NCBI GenBank assembly: GCA_964347405.1
Contig: CAYFYM010000069.1
Location: 1 to 36,294 of the forward strand
Origin: an uncultured Candidatus Bathyarchaeia archaeon
GTDB taxonomy: Archaea > Thermoproteota > Bathyarchaeia > TCS64
Reading direction: 5' to 3'
DNA: 36,294 bases
Below are positions 10,519 through 33,173 of this stretch, one piece after another; the stretch's first letter is position 1, and every line of letters begins with the position of its first letter. A program made the position numbers and the translations under genes. A model generated the notes under the pieces. That model had not been told where the DNA came from. It did not search any database and saw nothing but the letters and a program-made list of their open reading frames with translations.

Positions 10519-11055
10519 CTAGAGGACTCGTATGATCGTTGAAGTCTCCTTGTCGATGTGGATGAGGTTGGTCTCCTTGTCAAGCGAGAAACTCATGAAC
10601 GAGATGCCCTCGGTCTTCATGCCGGGTATGACTTTGACGCCTTCACCGAAACACTTCTTCAAACCAGTTACGCCACCCGCACAGCATAGTGCAACTATCG
10701 CTTCAGCCCCTGAGCAGCGTTCCACCAGCTCGGGGGCCGTCCATTTAGGGCCTCCTCCGTATACCTCGCTGTCGCTTGTCATGTAGCATAACGAAGGCCA
10801 GATCTCGACTCTGACGCTCTTTCCCCCGCCTTCTAGGATTCCCTTGATCCTGTCCGCCTCGTTTAGGATGGCCAAAGGTGGCCTCGAGATGCCCCCCGTC
10901 TCCTCGTCGATCACAAGCCTCTGGACGGGCTCATCCTTCTCGTACGCTATGCTGTAGTTGGCACAGTACGGGCAACCCACTATTACCAATGATTCGAAAC
11001 CTTCTGCTTCTCTCTCTATGCTCGAGTCGGGGCGCAATACGGCGTGTGTTGGCAA
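10519..11055 (-). CDS. conserved Cys-rich protein of unknown function (paralog of 19807-20343)
   Basis: 178-aa ORF with the motifs IVGCPYCANYSIAYEKDEPVQ and ALCCAGGVTGLKK. Roughly three quarters identical by eye to the second copy. No family confidently recognised. Confidence 0.7.
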   Translation of the reverse strand: MPTHAVLRPDSSIEREAEGFESLVIVGCPYCANYSIAYEKDEPVQRLVIDEETGGISRPPLAILNEADRIKGILEGGGKSVRVEIWPSLCYMTSDSEVYGGGPKWTAPELVERCSGAEAIVALCCAGGVTGLKKCFGEGVKVIPGMKTEGISFMSFSLDKETNLIHIDKETSTIIRVL

Positions 11056-13932: not shown

Positions 13933-15198
13933 GTGAGGAAGAGAACAATCTGGGTTATACTCGTCATCGGGATGACGCTGCTGGCAGCATCATCGATTCT
14001 CAGGTTCAACGAAGACGATGGGGTGGAAGAGACAGAAAACCCGCCGGGGGAAACACCGGAGCCGCCGTCCGAGACGCATGAGCCGCCGGAGGAAACCCAT
14101 GGACCGCCGCCGGAGACGCCGAAGGGGCTCCTCGTCAGCGAGATCTCGGAGGAAGCAGAAATCCTCTTCGTATCGATGAGATACGTCCTAAACGACCTAG
14201 CCTGTCTTGATGAGCGATACGAAGTCAAAACTAATTTCCTCAACGACCCCGAGTGCATCGAGAAGATCTACGACGCCGAGTCAGACGTGCTGGCGTCCCC
14301 GAGGCAGCTATACGCGTACGACATCGAGACGGGCGGCGTCACCCAGTTGACGAACGTCGACTACGATTTCTCGAGCTCGAAGCCCGTGGACTCGACCAGG
14401 ATAATGGCGATAGGCGCAGGCTCCGACACGGACGGCGACGGGATCGTCAGCACCAAGGACGAGATCAACATCTACCTGATAGATCTCGCGGAGGAGGAGA
14501 TAGAGTGCCTGACAGAGGGCCTGAACCTGACCTCGATAAACAACCCCGACTACTCCAAGGCGAACGAGAAGATCCTTTTCTCGGCGCAGAGAAAGGGAGT
14601 GTTCCACAACTACCTGTTCACGCTGGGCCTCGACCAAACACTTACGCAGGTGACCGATGATGACGAGTACCACGACTTCGACTGCTCGTGGTCGGAGGAC
14701 GGCACGAAGATCGTGTTCAGCAGGCTGCCGGATCAGGAGTACCCCTGGGTGATCCCCTCGCAGGTGTGGCTCATGGACGCGGACGGGACGAACCAGGTGA
14801 AGATCACGGACGGCGGGCCCAACCCGGACGACGAGGGGCCTCACGGACCGTACCCCATAGGGATCGACGCCGACCCCGACCTCAGCCCCGACAACAGTAA
14901 GATAGTGTTCTCGAGGCTCAAGACGGGGAAGCAGAACGAGCCTTTCGGAGTCTACGAGCTGGTCGTCTACGACTTGGAGTCTGACGAGGAGACGGTTCTG
15001 GACTCAAGCTACGCCAACATGATACCGGAGTGGAAGTCCCGGGGGATCGTGTTCATCAGGCAGATAGGGTCGTCGACCAGCGTGATGGATAGGAGACAGA
15101 GCATGTACGTCTACATTGACGACGAGTTCAGGGATCTGGAGCAGTACCCGTTCAACGTCTTCCCCATCAGCTCAAACGGGGCCAGCTGGATCGAGTAA
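13933..15198 (+). CDS. PD40/TolB-like beta-propeller repeat protein, N-terminal TM plus Pro/Glu-rich linker
   Basis: 421-aa ORF with PD40-like repeats (DCSWSEDGTKIVFSR, DPDLSPDNSKIVFSR). Paralog of 16851-18104. Confidence 0.8.
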   Translation: MRKRTIWVILVIGMTLLAASSILRFNEDDGVEETENPPGETPEPPSETHEPPEETHGPPPETPKGLLVSEISEEAEILFVSMRYVLNDLACLDERYEVKTNFLNDPECIEKIYDAESDVLASPRQLYAYDIETGGVTQLTNVDYDFSSSKPVDSTRIMAIGAGSDTDGDGIVSTKDEINIYLIDLAEEEIECLTEGLNLTSINNPDYSKANEKILFSAQRKGVFHNYLFTLGLDQTLTQVTDDDEYHDFDCSWSEDGTKIVFSRLPDQEYPWVIPSQVWLMDADGTNQVKITDGGPNPDDEGPHGPYPIGIDADPDLSPDNSKIVFSRLKTGKQNEPFGVYELVVYDLESDEETVLDSSYANMIPEWKSRGIVFIRQIGSSTSVMDRRQSMYVYIDDEFRDLEQYPFNVFPISSNGASWIE

Positions 15199-15216
15199 GA
15201 CGACGAGATGTAAACC

Positions 15217-16419
15217 ATGAACATCATAGAAAGGATGAAGACCCGAAGCCTTACGACGCTGTTGCTGCTGTCCCTCGTAGGGTCCTCCGTGATCGCCGCG
15301 TCGAGCGATGACGCATCATGTAGGATAATTTTTCGCAGCGCGATGGACGCGCCCTCGGCTGACCCCGACTTCCAGGAGAACCCCCAGAGGTACTTCGAGC
15401 TGTACACCATGAACGGCGACGGCTCTGACATACGGAGGGTGACCCACAACACGTACTATGAGAACCAGCCGGACGTCTCCCCCGACGGAAAAACAATAGT
15501 GTGCAGCGTCCACCTGAACGCGAGCAGGGCCTCGGGGACGGACCCCGGCTGGGAGATCGCGTTGATCGACATGGAGACGGGGGAGATGACGCTGTTGACG
15601 GACAACGACTACCTAGACTACGGCGCCCACTGGAACCACGACGGCACGGAGATCGTCTACGTGTCCGACTCAGCCCATAGAAACAAGGTCGATGTCGAGA
15701 ACCAGGTACCACTGAGATATGACATCTACACCATGAAGGCCGACGGTTCAGGCAAGACCCAGCTGACGTTCGCAGAGCCGGGGGACGTCAACGCCGACCC
15801 GAGCTTCTCGTTCTACGCCCCGAGCAGGATCCTCTACATACACTCTGAGGGGTACTCCGGCGCCTTCGACCTCTACGCGATGGATCGCGACGGCGGGAAC
15901 ACGGCGCTGCTCCGCGGCCATAACGAGCAGCTGCTGGCGATAAACGACCCCATGTTCAGCCCAGACGGCACAAGGATCGTGTTCGGCGCCAAGGTCCGCG
16001 AGTCCGCCGAAGGGAACCCGATATACAACGTCTTCACCGTGGACCCCTCCGGCGGCGACCTGACGAGGATCACCGCAGACGACGGCGAGTCGGACGTGAT
16101 CCCCCAGTACTCGCCCGACGGCGGATGGATCGCGTACTACACCTACGTCTGGGAGGGCGGCGGGAACACCCACAGGATAAGGGTCGTGAGGAGCGACGGG
16201 ACAGGCGAGAAGACGCTGTCGACCTACCCCTGGGAGTCGGACCCCAGCTGGTACACCGCACAACAGGAAGCTCAACAGACAGAGGATGAGCCCCAAGGCG
16301 GCACAGACATACCCGGGTTCGGGGCATTGTCAACATTAACAGCAATCCTATGCTTCCTCGTCCTCAAACAGCGAACGAACCATTCAAACACCGCCGAGTC
16401 CAAACTAAAACAAGCCTAA
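15217..16419 (+). CDS. PD40/TolB-like beta-propeller protein with C-terminal PGF-CTERM sorting signal
   Basis: 400-aa ORF with repeated xPDVSPDGKTIV / NHDGTEIVY / FSPDGTRIVF / YSPDGGWIAY motifs. The C-terminus, PGFGALSTLTAILCFLVLKQR, is archaeosortase-type PGF-CTERM. Confidence 0.8.
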   Translation: MNIIERMKTRSLTTLLLLSLVGSSVIAASSDDASCRIIFRSAMDAPSADPDFQENPQRYFELYTMNGDGSDIRRVTHNTYYENQPDVSPDGKTIVCSVHLNASRASGTDPGWEIALIDMETGEMTLLTDNDYLDYGAHWNHDGTEIVYVSDSAHRNKVDVENQVPLRYDIYTMKADGSGKTQLTFAEPGDVNADPSFSFYAPSRILYIHSEGYSGAFDLYAMDRDGGNTALLRGHNEQLLAINDPMFSPDGTRIVFGAKVRESAEGNPIYNVFTVDPSGGDLTRITADDGESDVIPQYSPDGGWIAYYTYVWEGGGNTHRIRVVRSDGTGEKTLSTYPWESDPSWYTAQQEAQQTEDEPQGGTDIPGFGALSTLTAILCFLVLKQRTNHSNTAESKLKQA

Positions 16420-16507
16420 ACAACCCCAACCCCTAGAAGAGGACCCACCCCCAAAACTTATTCCCGGTTACCCGGAACAAACAGAAAACACAAAACCTCC
16501 AAGTGAA

Positions 16508-16559
16508 TGGTAGCGGGGAGGTAGATTTGGACTACCGACCTTGGGATTATGACCCCCAC
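16508..16559 (-). repeat. tRNA(CAU) 3'-half-like fragment (anticodon arm to CCA)
   Basis: The reverse complement reads GTGGGGGTCATAATCCCA (anticodon arm, CAU) AGGTC GGTAG-TCCAAAT-CTACC (T-arm) T-CCCCGCT-A-CCA. No D-arm or 5' acceptor strand lies upstream. Confidence 0.65.
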
Positions 16560-16850
16560 GGGCTTCATGTTTTATAATCATCATCGATAGTCACTGGACC
16601 AGGTAAGGTGCAGATTAAAGAGAACTAGGATTACAGATCAGGTCCGCGGGCATGTACTGTACTGCCCCGAATATGCCAAGACAGATACCCATCTAGGAAC
16701 GAGCCACAGTTCGTGGCGGAGGACCCGTTCGCCGAGATCTGATCTGTTGTGCATTTCTCCATCTTTATTCAATTCGGCTACTTTTTATTACACACAAAAA
16801 GTTATAGATGGATTATGAAGGTTTTGAGCGTATTTGGGTGAGGTGTAGGT

Positions 16851-18104
16851 ATGAGGCGTAGCGTTTGGCTCGCTGTTTTAGCTATTGTTGTTCTCGTTGG
16901 GGTTTCCGGTGTATTGAGGCAGCCGGACGAGGTCGGTTCCCCGGGGGACAACGTGGAGACCTTGGAGCCCCCGGAGGAGCCAGAGGAGCCCACTGAGAAC
17001 CCGGAGCCCCCCGGGGAGGTTCCGGAGGGGATTCTGGTGAACGAGATTCCTGTTGGGGCTGATTTAATCTTCGTGTCAATGAGGTACGTGCTGGATGATC
17101 TTGCGTGTCTGGACGAGGAGTACAGGCTCAAGGCTGACTGGCTGGGGGACGCGGAGTGTATAAAGCTTATCTACAGCGAGGATTTCAGCATCACATCTTC
17201 TCCCCGGCAGCTGTACACGCTTGACATTGAGACAGGTGAGGTGGTCCAGTTGACAAACGTGGGTCACGATTTCTCAAGCTCAAAACCCATCGACATGACC
17301 CGAATCATGGCTATTGGCGCTGAGGAGGACACGGATGGTGACGGGATAGTGGGCACGGGTGACGAGGTAAACGTCTACGTTGTCGATCTTGCGTCCAAGG
17401 AAATTGAGTGTCTCACAGATGGGCTGGGCTTGAGGGAGTTCAATAACCCTGACTACTCGCAGGCAAACGGGTTGATAGTGTTCTCCGCCCAGAGACAAGA
17501 GTTGTTCCACAACTACCTGTTCACGTTGAGTCTTGACGGGGAGCTCACACAGGTAACCGACGACGATGAGTACTTCGATTTTGATTGCTCGTGGTCAGAG
17601 GACGGGTCCATGATAGTATTCAACAGGCTACCCTCCCCGGAGTCTTCATCGTTGCTTCCATCGAAGGTATGGCTTATGGATGCGGATGGCTCGAACATGG
17701 TCCAGATCAGCGAGGGTGGTTCTAACCCTGACGACGAGGAGCCACTCTGGGGCATGCATCCTATCGGGCTCGACGCTGACCCCGATTTGAGCCCGGATAA
17801 CAGTCAGGTCGTGTTTTCCCGGCTCAGGACAGGGCTTGTGAACGAGCCCTTTGGCATCTACGATCTAGTGGTCCACGATATTGAGTCGGGTGAGGAGACG
17901 GTTCTTGACTCCAGTTACGCTAACATGGTCCCAGAGTGGAAGGGTCAGGGCATAGTGTTCGTCAGGCAGAAAAAAATAGGAGATAGGGCTGTTGACCTTA
18001 AGCAAAGCATCCACGTATACGTTGACGGTGAGTTCAGGGACCTTGAGCCTTATCCTTTCAACGTGTTCCCCATCGGGTCGAATGGGGCTAGTTGGATAGA
18101 GTAG
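16851..18104 (+). CDS. PD40/TolB-like beta-propeller repeat protein (paralog of 13933-15198)
   Basis: 417-aa ORF, collinear and roughly two-thirds identical by eye to the 421-aa protein, with the same TM plus PE-rich linker architecture. Confidence 0.8.
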   Translation: MRRSVWLAVLAIVVLVGVSGVLRQPDEVGSPGDNVETLEPPEEPEEPTENPEPPGEVPEGILVNEIPVGADLIFVSMRYVLDDLACLDEEYRLKADWLGDAECIKLIYSEDFSITSSPRQLYTLDIETGEVVQLTNVGHDFSSSKPIDMTRIMAIGAEEDTDGDGIVGTGDEVNVYVVDLASKEIECLTDGLGLREFNNPDYSQANGLIVFSAQRQELFHNYLFTLSLDGELTQVTDDDEYFDFDCSWSEDGSMIVFNRLPSPESSSLLPSKVWLMDADGSNMVQISEGGSNPDDEEPLWGMHPIGLDADPDLSPDNSQVVFSRLRTGLVNEPFGIYDLVVHDIESGEETVLDSSYANMVPEWKGQGIVFVRQKKIGDRAVDLKQSIHVYVDGEFRDLEPYPFNVFPIGSNGASWIE

Positions 18105-19264: not shown

Positions 19265-19597
19265 CTACTCTAAGGGCTCCAACCTCTCTAACCTGAATAT
19301 CACGGGGCGCATGCCATCGGTGCAACACTTGATCATCTCGTTCTCCCTCAGCCAAGGATAGAACGTCCCGCCCAAGTGGAGGACCGATACGCACTCGCGT
19401 ATGTCGTGCCACGCGCCTGCGCAGAACCCCTCCGGCTTACCGTAGTTGTGGTAGACGTAGAACTCCTGCCCCTCCTCGTGGATCGGGCACCTCACGTGAG
19501 GCTCTCCGCTCTCCGTGTTCAGCGGAACACCGTCTCCGAACAGGGTCCCCGGTTCAACCACCTTCATCACAGAGATCTTGATCTTGTGACGCGTCAT
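19265..19597 (-). CDS. TIGR04076-family protein
   Basis: 110-aa ORF with the characteristic Cys/His pattern (RCPIHEEG...PEGFCAGAWHDI...IKCCTDGMRPVIFRLER). Confidence 0.7.
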   Translation of the reverse strand: MTRHKIKISVMKVVEPGTLFGDGVPLNTESGEPHVRCPIHEEGQEFYVYHNYGKPEGFCAGAWHDIRECVSVLHLGGTFYPWLRENEMIKCCTDGMRPVIFRLERLEPLE

Positions 19598-19806: not shown

Positions 19807-20343
19807 CTAGAGGTTTCGTATGATCGTTGACTTCTCCTTATCGATGCGGACGAGGTTGGTCTCGTCGTCGAGCGAGAAACTCAGAAGCGAGATGCCCTCG
19901 GTCCTCATGCCGGGTATGACCTTGACGCCTTCCCCGAAACGCTTCTTCAAACCGACCACGCCGCCTACACAGCATAATGCGATTATCGCTTCTGCCCCTG
20001 AGCAGCGGTTAACCAGCTCCGGGTCCGTCCATTGGGGTCCCCCCATCTGCACCTCGCTGTCACGGGTCATGGTGCATAGCGGGGGCCATATCTCGACACC
20101 GACGCTCACCCCCCTGCCCTCGAGGATCCCCTTGAGCCTGTTGGCCTCGTTTATCATGGCCAGGGGTGGCTTCGATGTGCTTCCGGTCTCCTCGTCAACT
20201 ATTATCTTCTGGACGGGCTCGTCTTTCTCGTACGCTATGCTGTAGTTGGCGCAGTATGTACAACCCACAATTGCGACGGACTCGAAACCTTCTGTTTCTC
20301 CGAGGATGCTTGAGTCGGGGCGCATCACGGTGTGTGTAGGCAA
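19807..20343 (-). CDS. conserved Cys-rich protein of unknown function (paralog of 10519-11055)
   Basis: 178-aa ORF of the same length and motifs as the first copy (IVGCTYCANYSIAYEKDEPVQ, ALCCVGGVVGLKK). Nucleotide similarity extends through the stop codon (TGTCTAGAGG). Confidence 0.7.
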   Translation of the reverse strand: MPTHTVMRPDSSILGETEGFESVAIVGCTYCANYSIAYEKDEPVQKIIVDEETGSTSKPPLAMINEANRLKGILEGRGVSVGVEIWPPLCTMTRDSEVQMGGPQWTDPELVNRCSGAEAIIALCCVGGVVGLKKRFGEGVKVIPGMRTEGISLLSFSLDDETNLVRIDKEKSTIIRNL

Positions 20344-20495: not shown

Positions 20496-21194
20496 ATGAC
20501 GATAAAGGCTTCCAGAGGCGCACTGATGAACATAGTCGATGACATCCCCGTCAGACTCAAGGCAGACCAAGTCAGGGGCAGTCTAAAAATCGGCAGAGGC
20601 ACGCCGTACGCCGAGAGAAAGATAGGGGAGCTCATAGACTGTATAGAGCCTGTGATGAGGCCCAAGGCTGTCTACACGGAGAGTATTGTTGTACAAACGG
20701 GCCTCGACACCGTGGCCGTCGACGGGCACGTTTTCACCAGCAGGGTGCTGGCGAAGAACCTCGCAGACCAGGAACGCTGCTATCCCTATGTTGTGACGGC
20801 GGGCAGAGAGCTTGACGGCGTGGAGCTGCCAGAGGGCCACAGCCCCATGCTTCTGAATCTCATAAAGAACGTCGTCGTGGAGAAGGCCTACCGGTACACG
20901 AGGGCGTTGATCGCCGAGAGGCACGGCGTGGAGCGTGTCTCGGGGATGAGCCCAGGCCACCTCGACTGGCCGCTGGAGCAGCAGAGGGTCCTCTTCGACC
21001 TGCTGGGCCGCGGCGTCGAAGGGATCGGCGTCAGTCTTACAGACGCGTATCTTATGGTGCCGGTGAAATCCGTTTCTGGCATCCTGTTCATGTCGGAGAC
21101 GGGGTTCGTTAGCTGCCGAGTATGCTCTCAGCCAAGGTGCATGGGCAGGAGGACGGGGTACGACCCCGTAGCGGCTAAGGCTTATGGGCTGTAG
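20496..21194 (+). CDS. MetH (B12-dependent methionine synthase) activation-domain-like protein
   Basis: 232-aa ORF. The motif GMSPGHLDWPLEQQRVLFDLLG...IGVSLTDAYLMVPVKSVSGILF resembles stand-alone Met_synt_B12 (PF02965-like) proteins found beside corrinoid methyltransferase systems. Confidence 0.65.
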   Translation: MTIKASRGALMNIVDDIPVRLKADQVRGSLKIGRGTPYAERKIGELIDCIEPVMRPKAVYTESIVVQTGLDTVAVDGHVFTSRVLAKNLADQERCYPYVVTAGRELDGVELPEGHSPMLLNLIKNVVVEKAYRYTRALIAERHGVERVSGMSPGHLDWPLEQQRVLFDLLGRGVEGIGVSLTDAYLMVPVKSVSGILFMSETGFVSCRVCSQPRCMGRRTGYDPVAAKAYGL

Positions 21195-21228
21195 CGCCGA
21201 GTCAGTGTTCTCAACCTAATACTTCAAA

Positions 21229-21247
21229 TATCCCCATGGGGGGGATA
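21229..21247. promoter_or_regulatory. candidate CsoR/RcnR-type operator (AT-flanked C/G-tract inverted repeat)
   Basis: TATCCCC-AT-GGGGGGGATA ends 6 nt before the regulator ATG. The known CsoR/RcnR family recognises G/C tracts flanked by AT-rich inverted repeats. Confidence 0.45.
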
Positions 21248-21252
21248 GGGAT

Positions 21253-21522
21253 ATGGGTTCAACGCATAAACACAGAAAAAAGGTAATCGACAGACTAAGC
21301 AGAATCGAAGGTCACATCAGAGGAATAAAAAAGATGGTTGAAGAAGATAGGGGCTGCCCTGATCTTCTCCATCAGCTAGCAGCAGTAAAAGCAGCGATAA
21401 ACAAGACAAGCGAGTTAATCCTCGAAGACCATATTCAGTCATGCCTTCTTGATGCAGTCAATGAAGGTTCAACAGATGAATATATCAAGAATCTCATGGA
21501 AGCCATATCAAAACTAGTATAG
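21253..21522 (+). CDS. CsoR/RcnR/FrmR-family metal-sensing transcriptional repressor
   Basis: 89-aa ORF. RLSRIEGHIRGIKKMVEEDRGCPDLLHQLAAVKAAI is the DUF156 signature, including the sensing Cys/His positions. Confidence 0.9.
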   Translation: MGSTHKHRKKVIDRLSRIEGHIRGIKKMVEEDRGCPDLLHQLAAVKAAINKTSELILEDHIQSCLLDAVNEGSTDEYIKNLMEAISKLV

Positions 21523-21531
21523 GTAATTTAA

Positions 21532-23427
21532 TTGTCAAACGTAGAGTGTGAATCATGCAGAACAAACCCACCGGGATTCTTCCACAAATACAAGGAATTC
21601 CTAACCAGCCCAGGGATAATCACCGCAGCGATAAACACAGTATTCCTAATCATAGGATTCGCGCTGGAATTCGGTGGAAACCATCAGTACGCAGACTACA
21701 GCTTCCTCATATCGGCTGTAGTCGGTGGGTACCCTGTCGTTAAGTTAGCAGTAACCAACATACTACGAGACTTCGACCTCACCGCGGGGGTAATGGCTAG
21801 CGTAGCCATAATAGCTGCGTTAATTGTCGGAGAGTATGCAGCCATGGCTCTAGTAGCCTTCATGTTCGTGATAGGAGAGGCACTAGAAGACTTTACACGA
21901 GAAAGAGCCGACCACGCGTTAAGGGAACTTAACGCACTAGTCCCTAACACTGTAACCATCAGAATGGACGGCGAAGACCGTAATGTACCACTTGGTCAGG
22001 TTAGGAAAGGAGATATAGCGCTCATCCGAGCTGGAGGAAGAATTCCCGTAGATGGCACCGTCCTTGAGGGAAATGCATCGGTCGATCAATCCTCCATCAC
22101 AGGAGAGTCAATGCCCATCGACAAAACAATAGGAGAAAAAGTCTACGCAGGAACCCTCGTGTCCAGCGGCGCGTTATCAATCAAGGTCGAAAACGTAGGC
22201 GAGACAACAACACTCGGGAAGATGATTCATCTCGTTGAGGAGGCACAGAGTTCACAGGCCCCTGTTCAACGGGTAGCGAACAGATACGCTAACTTCTTTG
22301 CACCCATAGCGATTGTCATCGCAGGCGTTACTTGGATGATCACAGGAGAAATCCTGCGAGGTGTAACCATGCTTGTAGCGATCTGCCCCTGTTCACTGGT
22401 GTTAGCTACCCCAACAGCAATTGTCGCAGCCATCGGCAACACTGCCCGAAACGGTGTCCTGGTCAAGAACGGCATAGCCATGGAACAGGTAGGCAAGGTC
22501 GATGTCGTGGCTTTCGATAAGACAGGTACAGTCACCTTCGGCGAACCAGAGGTAACAAACATCAAACCAGTAAATCAATACTCCGAGGATGAGCTATTAG
22601 TCTTGGCTGCCTCGGCCGAGAGAAGCAGTGAACACCCTCTCGCAAGAGCAATAGTAAGAGAAGCATCCAACAGAAAACTCACATTACACGTACCTGATGA
22701 CTTCGAGTCCGTGGTGGGACACGGTATCAACGCAGTGATAAACGGCAAGAAGGTGGCTGTAGGCGAGAAGATGCTTGAACTGGAAAATATCAACACTGAA
22801 AACACAGACCCAAACAATGAGGACACAATAATCCCGGTCGCAGTGGACGGCGAATACTCAGGATACATCTCAGTAGCGGACACAACAAGACCAGAATCCG
22901 CCCAAGCCATCGTGAACCTAAAAAAACTTGGAATAACCAAGACCCTCCTAATCACAGGGGACAGCAAATCAGTTGGAGAAAAAATAGGCAAAGAGCTTGG
23001 AGTCTCAGAAATACACTCGGAGGTACTACCTGAGAGAAAACTTGAGCTAATACGTGAGCTTCAATCCCAGGGACACCTTGTTGCCTTCATCGGCGATGGA
23101 GTAAACGATGCACCAGCATTAGCTGCAGCTGATGTCGGCATCGCCATGGGCAGCATCGGCACCGCCGTCGCGATGGAAACAGCAGACATTGTACTACTAT
23201 CCGATGAGATCGAGCAAGTCCCATACTTGATAGAGTTATCTCGAGCAACGATGGCCAATATTCGCACAAACATCATCGTATCGATGACCATCGTGTTAGC
23301 TAGTGTCGGAGCCAGTGCTTTAGGATTATTCGGGCCAGTCATTGGCGCAATAATGCATGAGGTAGCTGCTGTCCCAGTAATAGCCAACGCAGCAACTTTA
23401 ATCGGATGGAAATCAAAAAGGCTCTGA
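21532..23427 (+). CDS. heavy-metal translocating P1B-type ATPase (no N-terminal HMA domain)
   Basis: 631-aa ORF with a TTG start. It has a CPC transmembrane motif (VAICPCSLVLATP), DKTGT and GDGVNDAP. The last TM carries an HE motif (IMHEVAAVPVIANA) reminiscent of P1B-4-type pumps. Metal specificity is not assignable from sequence by eye. Confidence 0.9.
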   Translation: MSNVECESCRTNPPGFFHKYKEFLTSPGIITAAINTVFLIIGFALEFGGNHQYADYSFLISAVVGGYPVVKLAVTNILRDFDLTAGVMASVAIIAALIVGEYAAMALVAFMFVIGEALEDFTRERADHALRELNALVPNTVTIRMDGEDRNVPLGQVRKGDIALIRAGGRIPVDGTVLEGNASVDQSSITGESMPIDKTIGEKVYAGTLVSSGALSIKVENVGETTTLGKMIHLVEEAQSSQAPVQRVANRYANFFAPIAIVIAGVTWMITGEILRGVTMLVAICPCSLVLATPTAIVAAIGNTARNGVLVKNGIAMEQVGKVDVVAFDKTGTVTFGEPEVTNIKPVNQYSEDELLVLAASAERSSEHPLARAIVREASNRKLTLHVPDDFESVVGHGINAVINGKKVAVGEKMLELENINTENTDPNNEDTIIPVAVDGEYSGYISVADTTRPESAQAIVNLKKLGITKTLLITGDSKSVGEKIGKELGVSEIHSEVLPERKLELIRELQSQGHLVAFIGDGVNDAPALAAADVGIAMGSIGTAVAMETADIVLLSDEIEQVPYLIELSRATMANIRTNIIVSMTIVLASVGASALGLFGPVIGAIMHEVAAVPVIANAATLIGWKSKRL

Positions 23428-23483
23428 CACTTCCCATTTTATTTTAATTATATTCAATCTCTCATGTGGCAAAGACTTCGAAT

Positions 23484-24872
23484 TCAGTTATCCCATGTGA
23501 GCCCGCAGTCGCTGAACTTCTTCTTTACCTCCTCGATGAGGGCCCCGTACTCGGCGCTGGGCCTGTGGCGCTGCAGGTCGTAGCACTCCGTGATGAGCTT
23601 CCCGGGCTCAGGCGTTGGGTTCTCCATGAGCCTCGTGATGATGGGCTTGAACATCTCGTAGACCTCGCCCCTCTTCAGGCCCGATGCGATGGCGGCGTCC
23701 GACGCCTCTATCATCAGCTCCGCGTCAGCGGGGGTCTGGCCACCGTTCATCCGGCTCCTGCTCACCCTGGGCACGTACAGGTTGGCGCCGTTCACCGTGG
23801 CCTCTATGCTTCTGAGCACCAGCTCCTCCAGGTGGCTCGCCGTGCATAGCTCCGAGACGGGTATGGGCCAGTGCATGGGTATGCCGTCGCTGTTCCTGAT
23901 GGTGGCCTGGTAGACCACGGAGCGGGCGTAGCTGATGGGGAACATGGCTCTCCTGCCGCCGCTTATGTGGGTGAAGTGCTCGACGCCGTTGTAGTAGAGG
24001 TTGTCCCTGTAGACGATCCAAGCGACTATGGTCTTCACGAGGCTCTCGATGATGGCGCCCTCGGGGCCCCCTGCGAAGCCCCCCGCTATGCCGAAGCTGC
24101 CGCTTATGCCGAAGTAGCCGCGGCTTTGAAGCACCAGCGCCGCCGTTATGAGGTCGTACTGCACCTTGACGTCGGGCAGCACCGACAGCAGCACCCCGTC
24201 CGTGGGCCTGAGCCCTGCCACGGGGTCTATGGTGGCTAGGAACGAGGACGCCGCCGTCGTGATGGGGTAGTAGACTATGGCGGCGCCTGGCCTCCCAGCC
24301 TTCCTGATGCCCTCCCTGAGCCAAGCCACCTGGCGCTGGGAGGCGTAGGCCTCGATGGGGTGGCCGTATATGTCGTAGCCTTCGATCTTGAGGAAGTTGA
24401 ATCCCTCCAGGAAGTCGAGCCTCGGTATGGCGGCGAAGTTCTGGACCACCAGATCCGCCAGGTCCTCGGTGAAGGGGGCGTGGTGGCCCGGGGAGACGTT
24501 CATGGGCTCCGTGCCCTCGATGCTGTGCTGCCTCCACGTCCTGGCGTCTTTCCCCTCCCCCATGGCCACCTCGCTCTGCATAGCGCCTATGGCCTCCTTT
24601 ACCTCCTCCTCGCTGAACCTGACGACGCGCTCCCTGTCCAGGCAGAGGCAGCCGTGGTTCACCACGAAGTCCACTGCGGCCTCCCACGCGGCGTCGGCGA
24701 GGCCGTCGTCCGTGTTGATCCACTCGGTGTGGTCGCTGGGGCACCTTATTTCATAGGTCTTGACCAGCTCGGAGATGTTTCTGAACAGAGCCATGTCCCA
24801 GTCCCTGGCGGCCATCTTGGGGCCGCCACGCATCCTGTCCGCGATCTCCAGTAGGCTGATCATGGGCCTCAC
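23484..24872 (-). CDS. MtmB (monomethylamine methyltransferase)-like protein, pyrrolysine-free, divergent paralog
   Basis: 462-aa uninterrupted ORF of the same length class as MtmB. It has AGRPG followed by AAIVYYP where Methanosarcina MtmB has ...GV-Pyl-GPE. It also has GGFAGGPEG and a C-terminal ECYDL...PSAEY...FSDCGL tail. Confidence 0.8.
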   Translation of the reverse strand: MRPMISLLEIADRMRGGPKMAARDWDMALFRNISELVKTYEIRCPSDHTEWINTDDGLADAAWEAAVDFVVNHGCLCLDRERVVRFSEEEVKEAIGAMQSEVAMGEGKDARTWRQHSIEGTEPMNVSPGHHAPFTEDLADLVVQNFAAIPRLDFLEGFNFLKIEGYDIYGHPIEAYASQRQVAWLREGIRKAGRPGAAIVYYPITTAASSFLATIDPVAGLRPTDGVLLSVLPDVKVQYDLITAALVLQSRGYFGISGSFGIAGGFAGGPEGAIIESLVKTIVAWIVYRDNLYYNGVEHFTHISGGRRAMFPISYARSVVYQATIRNSDGIPMHWPIPVSELCTASHLEELVLRSIEATVNGANLYVPRVSRSRMNGGQTPADAELMIEASDAAIASGLKRGEVYEMFKPIITRLMENPTPEPGKLITECYDLQRHRPSAEYGALIEEVKKKFSDCGLTWDN

Positions 24873-24939
24873 CCTTGCTGTGGGTTACGAGTAAGTTTAC
24901 ATATTCAGTTCAAACCTATTTTAAGTCTAGTGCATCGAA

Positions 24940-25593
24940 TTGAGTGAAGAAGGTATTCTGCAGGGGCTCTCCGAGGCCGTACTCAGCTTCGACGCCGACG
25001 CGACCGCCGAGGCGGCGAAGGCTGCGGTAGACGCCGGCGTGAACCCGGTGACCGCCATCGAGAAGGGCCTCGCGGTGGGTCTGCGGGAGATCGGGGACAA
25101 GTTTGAGGCCGGCGAGCTTTGGCTGCCCCACCTGGTGCTGGGGGCCGAGGCCATGGAGGCCGCCATCAAGGTGCTCGAGGCGCACATGCCTAGGTCCGAG
25201 CTTGAGAGCACCAGGGCGGGTACCGTGGTCATCGGCACCGTAGAAGGGGACATACACGATCTCGGGCTACGGATCGTGGCCTCCATGCTGAGGGCCAACG
25301 GGTTCACGGTCCACGACTTGGGATGCGACACCCCGAGCCTAAATTTCATCTCTAAGGCCAGGGAGGTGGACGCGGACATCATCGCCCTGTCCTCCCTCAT
25401 GACCACCACCATGCCCTTCATGAGGGACGTCATCGACGCCCTGAACTCGGCGGGCCTCAGGGAAAAGTACAAGGTCCTGGTGGGCGGTGGCCCAGTCACT
25501 AGAGAGTGGGCTCAGGCCATCGGGGCCGACGGCTACGGCAAGGACGCGGCCGAGGCCGTTAGGGTAGCCAAAGAGCTTCTGGCCGGGGGTTAA
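24940..25593 (+). CDS. B12-binding corrinoid protein (MtmC/MtbC/MttC-like)
   Basis: 217-aa ORF with a TTG start, an N-terminal helical cap domain and the DxHxxG motif (EGDIHDLGL), then SSLMTTT and GGG motifs of the cobalamin-binding Rossmann domain. Confidence 0.9.
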   Translation: MSEEGILQGLSEAVLSFDADATAEAAKAAVDAGVNPVTAIEKGLAVGLREIGDKFEAGELWLPHLVLGAEAMEAAIKVLEAHMPRSELESTRAGTVVIGTVEGDIHDLGLRIVASMLRANGFTVHDLGCDTPSLNFISKAREVDADIIALSSLMTTTMPFMRDVIDALNSAGLREKYKVLVGGGPVTREWAQAIGADGYGKDAAEAVRVAKELLAGG

Positions 25594-25598
25594 CCGGT

Positions 25599-27011
25599 GT
25601 GACCGCCCCCAGCCTGTGGGAGGTCCTCGACAGGGCCTGCAACACCGGCCCCGCGGTGCCGGCCAAGGACTTCGACATGAAGGTCTTCAGGGAGGCCCAG
25701 CGGCTCGTCAGGGACCACGACATCAGGTACGACCCTCAGACGCCCGTGTCCACTGACGACGGCCTCGCGGACGAGGTGTGGGAGGCTGGGCTGGAGCTCT
25801 TCGCGGAGGTGGGGGCGTACTGCATGAACTCCAACAGGGTCATCATGTTCACGGAGGAGGAGATCAGGGAGGGGCTCAGGGGCCTGCGGGGCGAGGCCAG
25901 CATAGGCGAGGGCCCCGAGCGGAGGGAGATAGGGCTTAGGGGCGTCGAGGACGGAAGCCCGCCCACGGTGCTCTGCGGCGGAGTCATCGAGAGCAACGTC
26001 CCGGAGGGGGAGCTCTTCGTGAAGCTCTACCAGAGCATCGCCCAGGAGCCGGCTATAGACGGGTTCTACGTGGGGCCGCCCCTCCAGTCCTCCGAGGGGA
26101 GGCTCGTGCGCTCGGGGACGCCCTTCGAGACGCATCTCGGCAGCTCCATGGCGTCCTGGGTGCGTGAGGCGACGAGGCGGGCGGGGCGGCCTGGCCTGCA
26201 CTTCGCGTCGGCGTGCACGGCCGCCATCGCCAACGTTGCCGCCAGCGACTCGGTAGAGGGCCTGAGGAGGAGCGACGGGATCGTGGCCACCATAATGCCC
26301 GAGCTCAAGACGGACTACGAGAACCTCAACAAGATCGTCTACTGCCACGACTACGGGTGCGTGAAGCACTTCTACAACGGCGGCATGATCGGCGGCTGGG
26401 CGGGGGGCCCGGAGGGGGCCCTGGTAGTCGCCATCGCCAACGCGATAATGGTGGCCATGGTCTACTGTCTGGGGGAGGGGGAGTCCTACAACGCGCTGGG
26501 GTACCTGCGGGCCTCGACGCCCAACTACAGCGCCTTCGTCACACGTCCCTGCGTCTGGGGGTCCTCGATAGGCAGCCAGGCCATATCCAGGAACTCCAGG
26601 GTAGTCAACACCGCGATAGCCATGACCAACGCGGGCCCGGGCACCGAGATGCAGTTCCAGGAGATCGTGTCGGCGCTCTGCGCGTCCATGCCTTGTGGAA
26701 GGGAGGGGCTGTCCGAGGGGGTGAGGCGGTTCAAGGTGAAGCCCCTCCTCGGCAGCGGCCTGGAGAACAGGTTCTGGTGCGAGGTGGGGCAGGCCATGTC
26801 GAGGGCGAGCCGAGAACTGGCGGGCCACATAGCCGAAGAGATGCTTTCTAGGTACGAGCACAGGATCACGCGTGACTCCGACGGAGGCCCCGTGGGGCAC
26901 ACTTTCGACGAGATATACGACTTGGAGACGCTTCAGCCCCGGCGGCGGTTCCTGGAGGTCTACGACGGGGTGAAGAGGGATCTGGAGGACCTGGGATTAG
27001 AGTTTAGGTGA
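25599..27011 (+). CDS. MtmB-like methyltransferase, pyrrolysine-free
   Basis: 470-aa ORF whose GTG start lies 5 nt after the corrinoid gene stop. YCMNSNRVIMFTEEEI, AGRPGLHFASAC and the C-terminal TFDEIYDLETLQP...VYDGVKRDLEDLGLEF closely parallel MtmB as I recall it (TFQECYDVKTVTP...VYDGARKKLEDLGLVF). No in-frame TAG. Confidence 0.85.
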   Translation: MTAPSLWEVLDRACNTGPAVPAKDFDMKVFREAQRLVRDHDIRYDPQTPVSTDDGLADEVWEAGLELFAEVGAYCMNSNRVIMFTEEEIREGLRGLRGEASIGEGPERREIGLRGVEDGSPPTVLCGGVIESNVPEGELFVKLYQSIAQEPAIDGFYVGPPLQSSEGRLVRSGTPFETHLGSSMASWVREATRRAGRPGLHFASACTAAIANVAASDSVEGLRRSDGIVATIMPELKTDYENLNKIVYCHDYGCVKHFYNGGMIGGWAGGPEGALVVAIANAIMVAMVYCLGEGESYNALGYLRASTPNYSAFVTRPCVWGSSIGSQAISRNSRVVNTAIAMTNAGPGTEMQFQEIVSALCASMPCGREGLSEGVRRFKVKPLLGSGLENRFWCEVGQAMSRASRELAGHIAEEMLSRYEHRITRDSDGGPVGHTFDEIYDLETLQPRRRFLEVYDGVKRDLEDLGLEFR

Positions 27012-27015
27012 TGGC

Positions 27016-28431
27016 TTGACTGCGCCGAGTTTCTGGGAGATACTGGACAGGGCCTGCAACTCTGGGCCCGAGACCCCTGTGAGGGACTTCGACATGAAGA
27101 TATTCAGGGAGGCCCAGCGGCTGGTGGAGGAGCACGGCATAGAGTACGACCCCGAGGTCTACGTGCCCAGCGACGATAGCTTGGCTGATGATGTCTGGGA
27201 GGCGGGGTTCGAGCTGTTCATCGAGCTGGGGGTGTACTGCATGAACTCCAGGCGCGTCATCATGTTCGAGGAGGACGAGGTGCGGACGGCCCTCAGGGAG
27301 GTGCGGGGCGAGGTGGAGATCGGTGAGGGCGGGGAGAGGAGGCTCGTCAGGAGGCGGGGGATCGAGGGGGAGAATCCCCCGGTCATCGTGGGCGGCGTCA
27401 TCGAGAGCGACATCGCGGAAGGCGAGAACTTCGTGAAACTCTACCAGGCCATAGCGCAGGAACCCCTCATCGACGGGCTGTACGTGGGGCCGCCGGTCCA
27501 CACCTCGGAGGGGTACACGCTGAGGATGGGGTCGCCGCTGGAGGTGCACCTGGGGCGGTGCATGGCGGCGTGGGCCCGGGAGGCCGTTAGGAGGGCCGGG
27601 AGGCCGGGGCTGCACTACGTCTCGGCGTGCCCCTCGGCCATCGCCGACATCGCCGGGTGTAACCCCGAGAACGGCACGCGGCCCTCGGACGGAATCATGA
27701 TCTCGGTCACCTCGGAGCTAAAGACCGACTACGAGGCCCTGGCGAAGGTGGCGTACGCGCTGGACTACGGCTGCGTCAAGGCCACCCACGGGGGCTCCAT
27801 CATAGGCGGCTGGGCGGGGGGCCCAGAGGGGACGGCCGTGGTCTCCATAGCGGACTTCCTGTGCGCCGCCATGGTGTACCACCACAGGGTGGGCCCCACC
27901 TACGGCGACCACGGGTTGACGAGGTGCCCCGGCCCAGTCCCCGTATCCAGCGTGAACCCCGGGATGTGGGGAACGGAGCTGACCGGGCAGGCCATAGCCC
28001 GGAACTACAGGGGCGTAAATGGCCGCTTCTTCCTGACGGCTGCGGGGCCGGGCACCGAGATGCAGCTCTGGGAGGTGGCCGCCTTGGGCATCGCGGCCCT
28101 TGCTTCTGGCCGCGACATGTTCTGCGGTGGGGGGATTAGAAGGTACAAGGTGAAGCCCATGCTGGGCAGCGCCCTGGAGAACAGGTTCCACGCACAGCTG
28201 GGCCACGCGGCCCTCGGCATCAGCCGCGTGGACGCCGACGAGCTTGTCAGACGGATCGTAGATAAGTATGTCGATAACGTGACAAAGAATGGTGGTCCAT
28301 GGGGCTACACGTTCCAGGAGATTCATAACACGAGGACTCTCTCGGTTAGGCCCGAGTTTCAGGCCGTTTACGACAAGGTCAAGAGGGAGTTGACGGACAT
28401 GGGGCTAGACTTCCAGTATGGACTCAGTTAA
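27016..28431 (+). CDS. MtmB-like methyltransferase, pyrrolysine-free (tandem paralog)
   Basis: 471-aa ORF whose TTG start lies 4 nt after the preceding stop. The N-terminus MTAPSFWEILDRACNSGP is nearly identical to the preceding gene. It has AGRPGLHYVSAC and no in-frame TAG. Confidence 0.85.
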   Translation: MTAPSFWEILDRACNSGPETPVRDFDMKIFREAQRLVEEHGIEYDPEVYVPSDDSLADDVWEAGFELFIELGVYCMNSRRVIMFEEDEVRTALREVRGEVEIGEGGERRLVRRRGIEGENPPVIVGGVIESDIAEGENFVKLYQAIAQEPLIDGLYVGPPVHTSEGYTLRMGSPLEVHLGRCMAAWAREAVRRAGRPGLHYVSACPSAIADIAGCNPENGTRPSDGIMISVTSELKTDYEALAKVAYALDYGCVKATHGGSIIGGWAGGPEGTAVVSIADFLCAAMVYHHRVGPTYGDHGLTRCPGPVPVSSVNPGMWGTELTGQAIARNYRGVNGRFFLTAAGPGTEMQLWEVAALGIAALASGRDMFCGGGIRRYKVKPMLGSALENRFHAQLGHAALGISRVDADELVRRIVDKYVDNVTKNGGPWGYTFQEIHNTRTLSVRPEFQAVYDKVKRELTDMGLDFQYGLS

Positions 28432-28514: not shown

Positions 28515-29018
28515 TCATTCAATCTCTATCTGACCTGTGTTGTCTAATCTTGCTACCAGCCATTCATAGTTTTTATTCTTGATTACTTTTTTCACTTGAG
28601 CCCTAAGTAAATTGATATTCTGATTTTCAATTTTTTTAGATAGAAACATAATATCACTGATTACGCCCCTGCTGTTCATGTCTTTGAATACCAAGAAGTC
28701 CACTGGGTTCAATATAGGTTTGATATCATATGGGTCTAGTTTCAACTTTCTGAGATCCGCTTTAATGGCTTTGCTAAAGACCTTTTGAGCCTCTTTTCTC
28801 CCTTTTTCTACTGCGGCCTCCCTTAATGCACTCTCTATCTTGTCGAATTCCTCCTCTTTTTTATCCATTTCCAGTGATCTATTCTCATAATCGTCCAGCC
28901 AAGTTTTCTCAACTATACCCTTAGATTTCAGTCTTAGATCAGAAACTCTTACTATTTCTCCACATTCTGGGCATACGCATAAAATCTTTCTGAATTCTTG
29001 AAATTCCTCGAACTCCAT
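28515..29018 (-). CDS. Hjc-related endonuclease-fold protein (PF10107/COG4741-like), probably catalytically degenerate
   Basis: 167-aa ORF with an N-terminal CVCPECG, a charged coiled coil, and a C-terminal NPVDFLVF...DIMFLSKK...LLRAQVKKVI that is collinear with its neighbour. The E-x-K position reads S-K-K. Confidence 0.6.
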   Translation of the reverse strand: MEFEEFQEFRKILCVCPECGEIVRVSDLRLKSKGIVEKTWLDDYENRSLEMDKKEEEFDKIESALREAAVEKGRKEAQKVFSKAIKADLRKLKLDPYDIKPILNPVDFLVFKDMNSRGVISDIMFLSKKIENQNINLLRAQVKKVIKNKNYEWLVARLDNTGQIEIE

Positions 29019-29494
29019 CAGAACACCTCGTAAAGAACTTTCTTATCCTGTACCGCATCTCGTACCTGTCTTTGATTCTTATTGAGCCGGGCGTTTCCGC
29101 TTTTTACTTCAATGAAGCTGATTGACTCTATTTTATTCTGGCAACATCCATTGAATGTCAATAGGTCTATGGGATTGCCCAAAAACCTGCAATCGGGAAT
29201 ATTCCACCTGAAATCGTCCATAGTTGGTAAAACTTTTTCCAAGATTTTACCAATGTTAACGGCGGTTGTAGTAATCGTTGCTCTTTCAGTAGCTAATTTC
29301 TTGCTTTTTTCTAGACCCTTTTCTCTTTGTCTAAGTTCTTCTTCGTATCTTTCCTGTACTTCCTTTACTTCAGGGGGGAATGGTTTTGTTCCGTCAAAGA
29401 GAAATACTTCCGATAGTTTAAATTCACCACCACACGGACATTCAGCGTACAGGTCTGAATTTTTTAACTTGTCAATAATGTCGCTAGTTTTCAT
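29018..29494 (-). CDS. endonuclease related to archaeal Holliday junction resolvase (PF10107/COG4741-like)
   Basis: 158-aa ORF with an N-terminal CPCGG, a coiled coil, and RFLGNPIDLLTFNG...ISFIEVKSGNARLNKNQRQVRDAV (a PD-(D/E)xK-type D...E-x-K core). Its stop overlaps the next start (TGATG). Confidence 0.7.
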   Translation of the reverse strand: MKTSDIIDKLKNSDLYAECPCGGEFKLSEVFLFDGTKPFPPEVKEVQERYEEELRQREKGLEKSKKLATERATITTTAVNIGKILEKVLPTMDDFRWNIPDCRFLGNPIDLLTFNGCCQNKIESISFIEVKSGNARLNKNQRQVRDAVQDKKVLYEVF

Positions 29495-31767: not shown

Positions 31768-31893
31768 AAAACATGGCCGGAGACAGTTGACGGGTTGATC
31801 ATTCCCCTCCTCAGCGGCAGTCTTCATTGAATTGGGTTTATGATTCCTCAGACTATAAGGTCTTGACAAGGTCCTCAGCTCGACGATAGATAG

Positions 31894-32118
31894 TGGTAGG
31901 GGGCGATTTGAACCACCGATTTTGGGTTTATTAACTCCCACAAACATCAAGACGCAGGTTCAAACCTAGAACAACTGACCCCGTAACCAGTAGAGTAACG
32001 AAACAAGGCTTAAAACTACAGATTTTATTCGCGTAATACCAAGTAACCCGACACAAGAAACAAAATTTTCCGAGATTACAACCTACTTGCAACAAACAAC
32101 GATGGTAGCGGGGGGTAG
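31894..32118. repeat. ~225-bp direct repeat, copy 1 (bounded by two tRNA-like fragments)
   Basis: Near-identical to 32945-33173. The left end, TGGTAGGGGGCGATTTGAACCACCGATTTTGGGTTTATTAACTCCCAC, is tRNA 3'-half-like. The right end, TGGTAGCGGGGGGTAG..., continues to 32134 as a perfect T-arm plus acceptor plus CCA. Confidence 0.85.
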
Positions 32119-32326
32119 ATTTGAACCACCGACCTAGCATTTCTAGTATGTATCAAGTTGTGCATTCGTCGTCAAAGGAAGCCGAAAGAAGGGAGCACGC
32201 TGGTATGACACTAACCGGAACATGAGAAGAAAGATTTTTTATAGAAAATTTATAAAACAAGATTAACACCCGAGTGTGATCGACACTGAAGAGGATCTAA
32301 ACTCTTCACACTTGCAAGGTGAGTCT

Positions 32327-32881
32327 ATGTCAAAGGTTCTCGTAATGAATGGAAGCCCCAGACCAAAGGGAAACACCGCCTATCTCATAGGAGAGCTCAG
32401 TAAAGTGCTCGTTGAAAAGGGGCACGACGTGGAGGTGCTGGACCTCAACGATCTGGATATCAAGCCGTGCCAAGGCTGTTTCTCGTGTTATCGCGGGTTT
32501 CCCCTTAGGTGTGTGCAGGACGACGCCATGAATTCACTGTACCCCATGGTTTTGGGGTCCGATGTGCTGGTTTTCGCTTCTCCCATCTACTGGTTTAACT
32601 ATTCTGCTCAGTTGAAACTTTTCGTCGATCGTCTGGTGGCGTTGCACGTGGAAGGTGGTCACGCGTTAGATGGGAGAAAGTTCGCCTCCATCTTCGTATA
32701 CGGTGATACGGACTCGGAGGCGTCCGGGGTCTTCACCGCCATGGAGTCCGTTGATCGGGTGGTTTCGTATTTTAAAGGCGTTTATCTGGGAATCGTTCAT
32801 GGTACAGGTGGAGACGATCTCACCGTCTCTGACAATGAGATGCTTCTTGATGAACTAGGAAAGCTGGCAGACAAGATATAG
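32327..32881 (+). CDS. iron-sulfur flavoprotein / NADPH-dependent FMN reductase family (flavodoxin fold)
   Basis: The ATG at 32327 is preceded by GGTGA. It has MSKVLVMNGSPRPKGNT and the compact Cys motif CQGCFSCYRGFPLRC (C-x2-C-x2-C-x7-C) typical of ISF proteins. Confidence 0.8.
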   Translation: MSKVLVMNGSPRPKGNTAYLIGELSKVLVEKGHDVEVLDLNDLDIKPCQGCFSCYRGFPLRCVQDDAMNSLYPMVLGSDVLVFASPIYWFNYSAQLKLFVDRLVALHVEGGHALDGRKFASIFVYGDTDSEASGVFTAMESVDRVVSYFKGVYLGIVHGTGGDDLTVSDNEMLLDELGKLADKI

Positions 32882-32944
32882 GCGTCTCGAAAACCACCTC
32901 TCCAGCTTTTGGTAAGTGTAAAACAGAAGGTAGACCCAGATAGC

Positions 32945-33173
32945 TGGTAGATGGAGTAGATTTGAACCACCGATTTTGGGTTTATTATCTCCCACAAACA
33001 TCAAGACACAGGTTCAAACCAAGAACAACTGACCCCGTAACCAGTAGAGTAACGAAACAAGGCATAAAACTACAGATTTTTTCGCCTAATACCAAGTAAC
33101 CCGACACAAGAAACAAAATTTTCCGAGATTACAACCTACTTGCAACAAAACCAGCGATGGTAGCGGGGGGTAG
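32945..33173. repeat. ~225-bp direct repeat, copy 2
   Basis: Collinear with 31894-32118, differing by about half a dozen substitutions and two small indels by eye. The terminal tRNA-like piece is truncated after TGGTAGCGGGGGGTAG. Confidence 0.85.

Follow-up and report, generated by a model that had tools for sequence, protein, structure and literature searches.

A contig from an uncultured Candidatus Bathyarchaeia archaeon (GenBank assembly GCA_964347405.1, contig CAYFYM010000069.1, positions 1 to 36,294 of the forward strand; this whole stretch of 36,294 nucleotides is called the window below) encodes, at positions 23484-28431, three relatives of the monomethylamine methyltransferase MtmB together with a single corrinoid protein (CP). 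The locus is a real, conserved and pyrrolysine (Pyl)-independent module whose substrates are probably not monomethylamine (MMA), and its proteins belong to an enzyme group that is already recognised and of which a first representative was characterised in 2026. We consider it moderately probable that the locus serves corrinoid-dependent methyl transfer as a conserved module of Bathyarchaeia, in which the three MtmB-like proteins, designated A, B and C, would be substrate-specific methyltransferases of the first type (MT1s) for methyl donors other than MMA. The module consists of the following elements:

23484-24872, minus strand: paralog A, predicted non-Pyl MtmB-family methyltransferase (A clade); uninterrupted open reading frame (ORF) of 462 aa.
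24873-24939: divergent intergenic region between A and the corrinoid protein gene; 67 bp, putative promoter.
24940-25593, plus strand: cognate corrinoid protein (CP), B12-binding; 217 aa, in which GDIHDLG is the DxHxxG His-on ligand motif.
25599-27011, plus strand: paralog B, predicted non-Pyl MtmB-family methyltransferase (B clade, Bathyarchaeia only); 470 aa.
27016-28431, plus strand: paralog C, predicted non-Pyl MtmB-family methyltransferase (C clade, Bathyarchaeia only); 471 aa.

Gaps of 5 nt (25594-25598) and 4 nt (27012-27015) separate the CP gene from B and B from C, and A is divergently transcribed relative to CP-B-C. A preliminary description of this DNA, made from the letters alone, had given the ORF positions, lengths, strands and gaps exactly so. 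For paralog A, the likely true start is the ATG at 24863, which yields 459 aa and agrees with the database gene call. All three proteins matched the Pfam family PF05369 (MtmB) far above its cutoff of 25 bits (156.3 bits for A, 218.1 for B and 232.9 for C), with profile positions 3-450 of 450 covered, which bears out the proposed full-length membership. C aligned with the sequence of the Methanosarcina barkeri MtmB crystal structure (1L2Q/1NTH) over residues 9-466 (E = 1.6e-45). An AlphaFold2 model of A, the most divergent paralog, had a predicted local distance difference test score (pLDDT) of 92.9 and could be superimposed on 1NTH with template modelling (TM) scores of 0.90/0.91 and a root-mean-square deviation of 2.5 Å over 473 columns at 23% identity; its TM score against MttB/MtgB was only about 0.48. 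For B and C, an MtmB-type TIM-barrel fold is predicted from sequence. The shared motifs listed there (YCMNS.RVIMF, GGWAGGPEG and a C-terminal TF.EI...) hold for B and C, but A follows them only loosely (LCLDRERVVRF, GGFAGGPEG). The CP carries PF02607 and PF02310 domains and passes TIGR02370 (231.8 versus a cutoff of 215.3); its top equivalog-type matches, MtbC and MtgC, were both under their cutoffs.

A, B and C lack an in-frame TAG, since all three ORFs are uninterrupted. Pyl202 of M. barkeri MtmB aligns with Val in A, Ala in B and Val in C; for C, the M. barkeri segment GRPGMGV-X-GPET (X = Pyl202) lies opposite GRPGLHY-V-SACP. The residues that follow AGRPG read LHFASAC in B, LHYVSAC in C and AAIVYYP in A, as reported earlier, and B and C share a two-residue deletion immediately following the Pyl position. 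TAG serves as the stop codon in nine of the 30 genes in the window, which argues against Pyl decoding, and also in many B and C orthologs; published shares of TAG among stops are below about 5% in Pyl-using methanogens and about 17-18% in non-users (PMC12180501). No tRNA or pyl genes were found in the window, the part of the genome that the search covered.

To place these proteins within the family, a scan of species-representative genomes was combined with targeted look-ups, giving 88 loci (L-numbers), and 138 MtmB-family genes from the first 80 of these were clustered. Of the 138, 26 are true Pyl-MtmBs, each with an in-frame TAG at codon 202-215 and with 50-94% identity to M. barkeri MtmB; their hosts are Methanosarcinaceae, Desulfosporosinus, Desulfobacteraceae and Dehalococcoidales. 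A TAG at the Pyl position is absent from all the rest of the comparison set, more than 100 family members, and the only other internal TAGs are two isolated ones elsewhere in the gene (B of L007 at codon 270 and C of L012 at codon 497). The nearest relatives of the window proteins, at 75-95% identity, all come from Candidatus Bathyarchaeia/Bathyarchaeota metagenome-assembled genomes (MAGs) and, where named, are called 'monomethylamine:corrinoid methyltransferase'. The B and C clades are restricted to Bathyarchaeia (21 and 16 sequences). In contrast, the A clade (31 sequences) includes orthologs at 50-58% identity outside Bathyarchaeia, in Neomoorella stamsii, a Deltaproteobacterium (Desulfobacterota), Chloroflexota and Methanomassiliicoccales. 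An exhaustive profile search returned 1,535 family clusters at 50% identity, 414 of them at E <= 1e-30. The Pyl-free part of the MtmB family is, by this estimate, large, because at least 150 of the 1,535 clusters are full-length and uninterrupted.

The literature confirms of the MtmB pocket only that Pyl202 is located on a barrel strand, and we therefore built the pocket comparison on clade-specific invariants. In a 130-sequence alignment, residues invariant in all 26 Pyl-MtmBs and present in fewer than 10% of the other sequences were taken as Pyl-clade markers. There are 37 such positions, including E205, H228, E229, Q232, M257, E259, Q260, M261, E273, N332, Q333, Y334 and Y335, and in clades A, B and C the marker residues are all replaced by clade-specific invariants. 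These are V200 Y201 Y202 P203, L at 229, F260, F266, M333 and W335 in the A clade (31 members, five phyla); H201 F202 S204 A205 C206, C254, H257, Y259 and W267 in the B clade (21 orthologs); and H200 V202 S203 A204 C205, C253, H258, W266 and F338 F339 in the C clade (16 orthologs). Each clade is thereby predicted to have a distinct, conserved pocket without the acidic and amide residues that go with Pyl. Such clade-by-clade replacement favors differing specificities for the three proteins and makes donors other than MMA the likelier reading. By analogy with MtqB (discussed below), a donor of the quaternary-amine type may bind through cation-pi interactions in the aromatic pocket of A (Tyr, Tyr, Phe, Phe, Trp). 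For B and C, metal-assisted chemistry is suggested by the invariant His/Cys set, which resembles the zinc ligands of MtaB and of the second methyltransferases (MT2s) of such systems. Compared to M. barkeri MtmB, the window proteins share the Pfam family, the full-length TIM barrel, an adjacent CP and the family-wide invariants G195 R196 G198, D226, G265 G266, G269 and E348, whereas the UAG-encoded Pyl202, all Pyl-clade invariants and, in B and C, two residues are gone, and overall identity is only 24-27%.

The preliminary description had spoken of three paralogs. Three family members do share one CP, but they fall into two groups with a conserved pairing: B and C are 55% identical, while A is only 27% identical to either. 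As judged from these identities, A and B/C are two ancient subfamilies and not recent paralogs, because A is no closer to B/C (27%) than to Pyl-MtmB (24%). Pairwise ratios of nonsynonymous to synonymous substitution (dN/dS) against orthologs were 0.04-0.16 for A, 0.11-0.16 for B and 0.05-0.09 for C. All three genes are under purifying selection and are not decaying relics.

We then considered how well the gene arrangement is conserved. The divergent layout, with A on one strand and CP-B or CP-B-C on the other, was found in about 23 Bathyarchaeia genomes at species level. C is present in about two thirds of these modules (L001-L003, L005, L007-L013, L016, L017 and L019) and is missing from the others (L014, L018, L020-L022 and L025). 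A CP homolog lies within 1.6 kb of 28 of 28 A-clade genes and of 28 of 31 B/C-clade genes. Two AT-rich boxes, TTTACATAT and CTATTTTAAGTCTAGTG, lie in the divergent intergenic region and are kept in the window, L001, L002, L005, L011, L016 and L024; we infer that they are TATA boxes. An Rfam scan of the window for riboswitches and other non-coding RNAs gave no match.

A neighbour census over 23 distinct loci showed a single recurrent companion family, the RACo/RamA-type reductive activases. An activase of this type occurs in seven of the 23 loci, always within 400 bp of the module, and the one in L002 has RACo domains and scores 505 bits to AcsV. In the sub-lineage of the window, this position is taken by a different gene:

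20496-21194, plus strand: candidate accessory gene, MetH-reactivation-domain-like; 232 aa with a C-terminal CxxCx4C.

This MetH-like gene had been proposed as part of the system. It adjoins A in related genomes, at a distance of 5 bp in L001 and 33-43 bp in L024, and in the window only a 2.28-kb cassette separates the two. A profile of three orthologs of the 232-aa protein matched the stand-alone Thermotoga maritima protein 1J6R with E = 0.008 over about 120 residues; a single-sequence AlphaFold2 model (pLDDT 41) was unusable. Linkage of the gene to the module is supported by synteny, while its putative identity as a MetH activation domain is weak. The Cys-rich protein of 178 aa that had also been proposed as a system component was rejected: its gene (19807-20343, minus strand) lacks a counterpart in every related locus that was compared, and a 76% identical paralog lies elsewhere in the window (10519-11055, minus strand). 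Neither copy has a Pfam match.

Outside Bathyarchaeia, A-type orthologs on Methanomassiliicoccales-type contigs form complete CP-MT1-MT2 operons, in which the MT2 passes the cutoffs for MtaA/CmuA and for methylcobalamin:CoM methyltransferase. In Neomoorella stamsii and the Deltaproteobacterium, the partners of the A-type gene are a CP and a further member of the MtmB family. Across the A clade, the partner was either an MtaA-type MT2 of the uroporphyrinogen decarboxylase (URO-D) fold (L051, L058, L059 and L083-L085) or a second MtmB-family gene (L001-L025, L034, L042, L057, L071 and L074), never both, and the sole exception to this pattern was L070.

Pyl-free MtmB homologs that use other donors have been published already, and this limits the surprise of the present module. 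They have been "known for many years" and form a recognised group (PMC9768040, 2022). In 'Ca. Formimonas warabiya' DCMF, Holland et al. found that Ga0180325_111810, which belongs to the MtmB superfamily but lacks Pyl, was the most induced protein during growth on dichloromethane and proposed a role outside MMA metabolism (PMC9768040); its induction indicates that such Pyl-free proteins are expressed and serve non-MMA roles. It is Pyl-free like the window proteins, but it is bacterial and only about 30% identical to other family members. In Methanococcoides methylutens Q3c, a non-Pyl MtmB homolog named MtqB is encoded beside its CP, MtqC, and was shown by Kashyap et al. (2026) to demethylate choline and tetramethylammonium, with trace activity on MMA; Bathyarchaeia are not mentioned in that paper (PMC13044021). 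The earlier suggestion of an uncharacterised non-Pyl branch with different donors therefore stands as far as the replaced Pyl pocket is concerned, but not as a new idea. The quaternary-amine methyltransferases MtgB, MtcB, MtpB and MtyB of the MttB superfamily offer a parallel, being Pyl-free relatives of a Pyl enzyme that act on other methyl donors in systems with a CP, an MT2 and a RamA-type activase. They are, however, unrelated to the window proteins in sequence, and the structural match is that of a generic TIM barrel (TM about 0.48). The characterised bathyarchaeial lignin O-demethylase also named 'MtgB' was discarded as a relative, being shorter (about 300 aa) and unrelated.

In the mechanism that we propose, A, B and C are Pyl-independent enzymes of the MtmB TIM-barrel fold and most likely substrate-specific MT1s. 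Each would bind a methylated compound other than MMA and transfer its methyl group to Co(I) of the single shared CP. An MT2 whose gene lies in another part of the genome would then move the methyl group from the CP onto a C1 carrier. Corrinoid oxidised to Co(II) would be re-reduced by the RACo/RamA-type activase that flanks the module in many relatives, a step that the MetH-reactivation-domain-like protein may perform in the lineage of the window. Support comes from the family and fold, the absence of Pyl, the replaced pocket, purifying selection, linkage to a CP and to activases, and the linkage of A-type genes to an MtaA-type MT2; from these we infer the direction of transfer, the non-MMA donors and the distinct specificities. 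Several substrates for the paralogs are plausible. Alternatively, the paralogs may demethylate one compound sequentially, or one subfamily may have an MT2-like role.

Several observations weigh against this mechanism. The window encodes neither a RACo nor an MT2, whether of the MtaA/MtbA URO-D fold or of the pterin-binding/MtrH type. In three annotated Bathyarchaeia loci (L001, L002 and L081), the 10 kb around the module likewise contain no MT2. The 232-aa MetH-like protein scores 23.8 bits against PF02965 (MetH activation domain), below the threshold of 25. Neighbouring genes were considered as clues to the substrate and gave none, since Peptidase_M19 (three loci), MFS (three loci), SSF/DUF485, creatininase and DHDPS families occur sporadically and only activases recur. 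The pocket mapping is a sequence alignment with a two-residue indel beside the Pyl position in B and C. Finally, the slight MMA activity kept by MtqB means that Pyl-free use of MMA is chemically possible (PMC13044021).

This last point bears on the assumption made in MAG studies, namely that A, B and C are Pyl-free MMA:corrinoid methyltransferases that give Bathyarchaeia MMA methylotrophy. NCBI and JGI attach that name to orthologs of 80-95% identity, and mtmB has served as an MMA marker in Bathyarchaeia, Pyl not being addressed (Hou et al. 2023, PMC10321748; PMC11264602). However, the database names were transferred automatically at the level of the family, the proteins have low identity to M. 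barkeri MtmB, and the residues that set the 26 TAG-containing MtmBs apart as invariant and specific, Pyl202 included, have all been replaced. We regard MMA use as very unlikely. There is even less room for the idea that Pyl-MtmB genes lost their UAG and left these three as decaying or non-catalytic remnants, an objection that the preliminary description had itself raised. The missing Pyl and the missing acidic residues of the pocket would fit, but the low dN/dS in all three genes effectively refutes it, as do their full lengths, dozens of clade-specific invariants, the confident model and an operon layout kept in about 23 species-level genomes; we give it almost no weight. Another possibility is that A, B and C are functional orthologs of MtqB, and so merely further copies of a characterised methyltransferase for quaternary amines of the choline/tetramethylammonium type. 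The layout matches, with a non-Pyl MtmB homolog of about 460 aa (about 459 aa in MtqB, an MT1 for a non-MMA donor) beside a TIGR02370-type CP (about 216 aa) that carries the annotation 'dimethylamine corrinoid protein', and the invariant aromatic cluster of the A clade could form a cation-pi cage. In contrast to MtqB, the window combines three enzymes of two subfamilies with one CP, in a non-methanogenic Bathyarchaeon and with no MT2 nearby. The clades are probably also separate. Measured on non-Pyl homologs from Methanococcoides and Methanolobus as proxies for MtqB, identity to A, B and C is 23-32% and every pocket position differs (M202, C261 or C268, and Y333 Y334 W335 in the proxies), and Methanococcoides is not represented in the 120 top-ranking relatives of A or C, in the best 80 genome loci, or by name in the representatives nearest to Pyl-MtmB. 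The proxies resemble the published Met/Cys/aromatic signature of MtqB in that they carry Met opposite Pyl202, Y333 Y334 W335 and a conserved Cys. They remain proxies because the two Methanococcoides proteins, P0267 and P0270 (from a search seeded with a Methanolobus non-Pyl homolog), have no adjacent CP and are 90% identical to each other, which does not fit the published figures of 78% and 87%. Orthology to MtqB is in our view unlikely. The homologs in Methanolobus (L052-L056, L066-L068 and L075) and Methanococcoides (L086 and L087) are Pyl-free orphans of 456-457 aa without an adjacent CP; in Methanolobus a Pyl-containing mtmB lies directly beside them, and in Methanococcoides their neighbours are a Cdc6-like gene and a hydantoinase.

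Two further readings give B and C a different chemistry. In one, labour is divided: A would be the MT1, and B/C would act as the MT2 that unloads methyl-CP, their His/Cys residues forming a Zn site like that of MtaA, MtbA and MetE. This could be the case given that 30 of the 31 A-clade genes occur with a CP plus one other partner, which is another gene of the MtmB family or an MT2 of the MtaA-type URO-D kind but never both, that no conventional MT2 lies near Bathyarchaeia modules, and that H200/201, C205/206, C253/254 and H257/258 are invariant in B/C. To our knowledge, however, no MtmB-fold MT2 is known, which counts against such a role. Moreover, the B/C-related clades cl7 and cl4 occur alone with a CP in the classic MT1-CP layout, the spatial clustering of the His/Cys residues is hypothetical, and the presence of two MT2s, B and C, would need explaining. 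We rate a division of labour as rather unlikely, somewhat below orthology to MtqB. In the other reading, the MtmB fold would have been re-tooled twice within one module, A with an aromatic cage for a cationic donor and B/C with a His/Cys metal site in place of Pyl that either activates O- or S-methyl donors or makes them MtmB-fold MT2s. This is a speculative proposal to which we assign about the same low likelihood as to MtqB orthology. A module of substrate-specific MT1s for non-MMA donors remains the explanation that we prefer.

The DNA around the module is heterogeneous in composition. The module region has a GC content of about 65%, against 37-52% around it. We rejected the notion of a GC-rich island acquired horizontally, as the GC content at third codon positions (GC3) of the module genes, 0.84-0.91, matches that of most genes in the window (0.63-0.91). 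The outliers are instead genes of low GC3 that are absent from the closest relatives, namely those for a CsoR protein (0.38), a P-type ATPase (0.50), two Endonuc_Holl ORFs (0.38-0.39) and a second P-type ATPase (0.32). A low-GC cassette of 2.28 kb (21199-23480) sits exactly between the MetH-like gene and A. Its two genes encode a metal-sensing repressor of the CsoR type (21253-21522) and a P-type ATPase for heavy metals (21532-23427). The closest relative, L024, is 91.5% identical at the nucleotide level on both sides of the cassette, and its flanking genes are 33 bp apart. The cassette looks like a recently acquired metal-resistance unit. Downstream of C, on the minus strand (28515-29494), two tandem ORFs of 158 and 167 aa carry an N-terminal zinc-ribbon-like CxxC pair and the Endonuc_Holl domain (PF10107), at a GC content of 0.37-0.39. 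They begin right where the homology of the window to its closest relative, L004, stops (28492), and PADLOC gave no match; they may be a mobile or defence-related insertion.

Other features of the window lie further from the module. A direct repeat of about 212 nt (31885-32096 and 32939-33149, 92-97% identical) flanks an FMN-reductase gene (32276-32881), and a copy of 78-80% identity occurs in the related Bathyarchaeia contig L004 (6471-6709). It has no Rfam match and its fold z-score is about 0 on both strands; it is possibly a repeated promoter or leader or a small mobile element. The products of three consecutive genes at 13933-18104 are about 400-420 aa long and contain PD40/beta-propeller repeats; a hydrophobic, signal-like segment opens the third of them at least, and they may represent a secreted or surface protein family. 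A TIGR04076-family protein is encoded at 19265-19597 on the minus strand, and likewise in L001 (18211-18537) and L006 (3069-3257), 1.5-7 kb from the MtmB-like module in these three related genomes, which may reflect either functional linkage or merely shared synteny.

Bathyarchaeia are among the most abundant archaea of anoxic sediments, and their carbon sources are debated. Our pocket analysis indicates that the metagenomic reading of these genes as evidence of MMA use (PMC10321748, PMC11264602) is probably wrong, and that 'mtmB' in metagenomes should not be taken as MMA use. With three MT1 candidates, one CP and strong purifying selection, the module is compact and tractable for heterologous substrate screening, the approach that solved MtqB, MtgB, MtcB, MtpB and MtyB. 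Because the A subfamily also sits in complete CP-MT1-MtaA operons of Methanomassiliicoccales, its substrate could reveal an unrecognised methanogenic substrate. If the MtmB fold was indeed re-tooled twice, abundant sediment archaea would have previously unrecognised methyl substrates or acceptors, and counts of 'mtmB' in metagenomes would not report MMA use.

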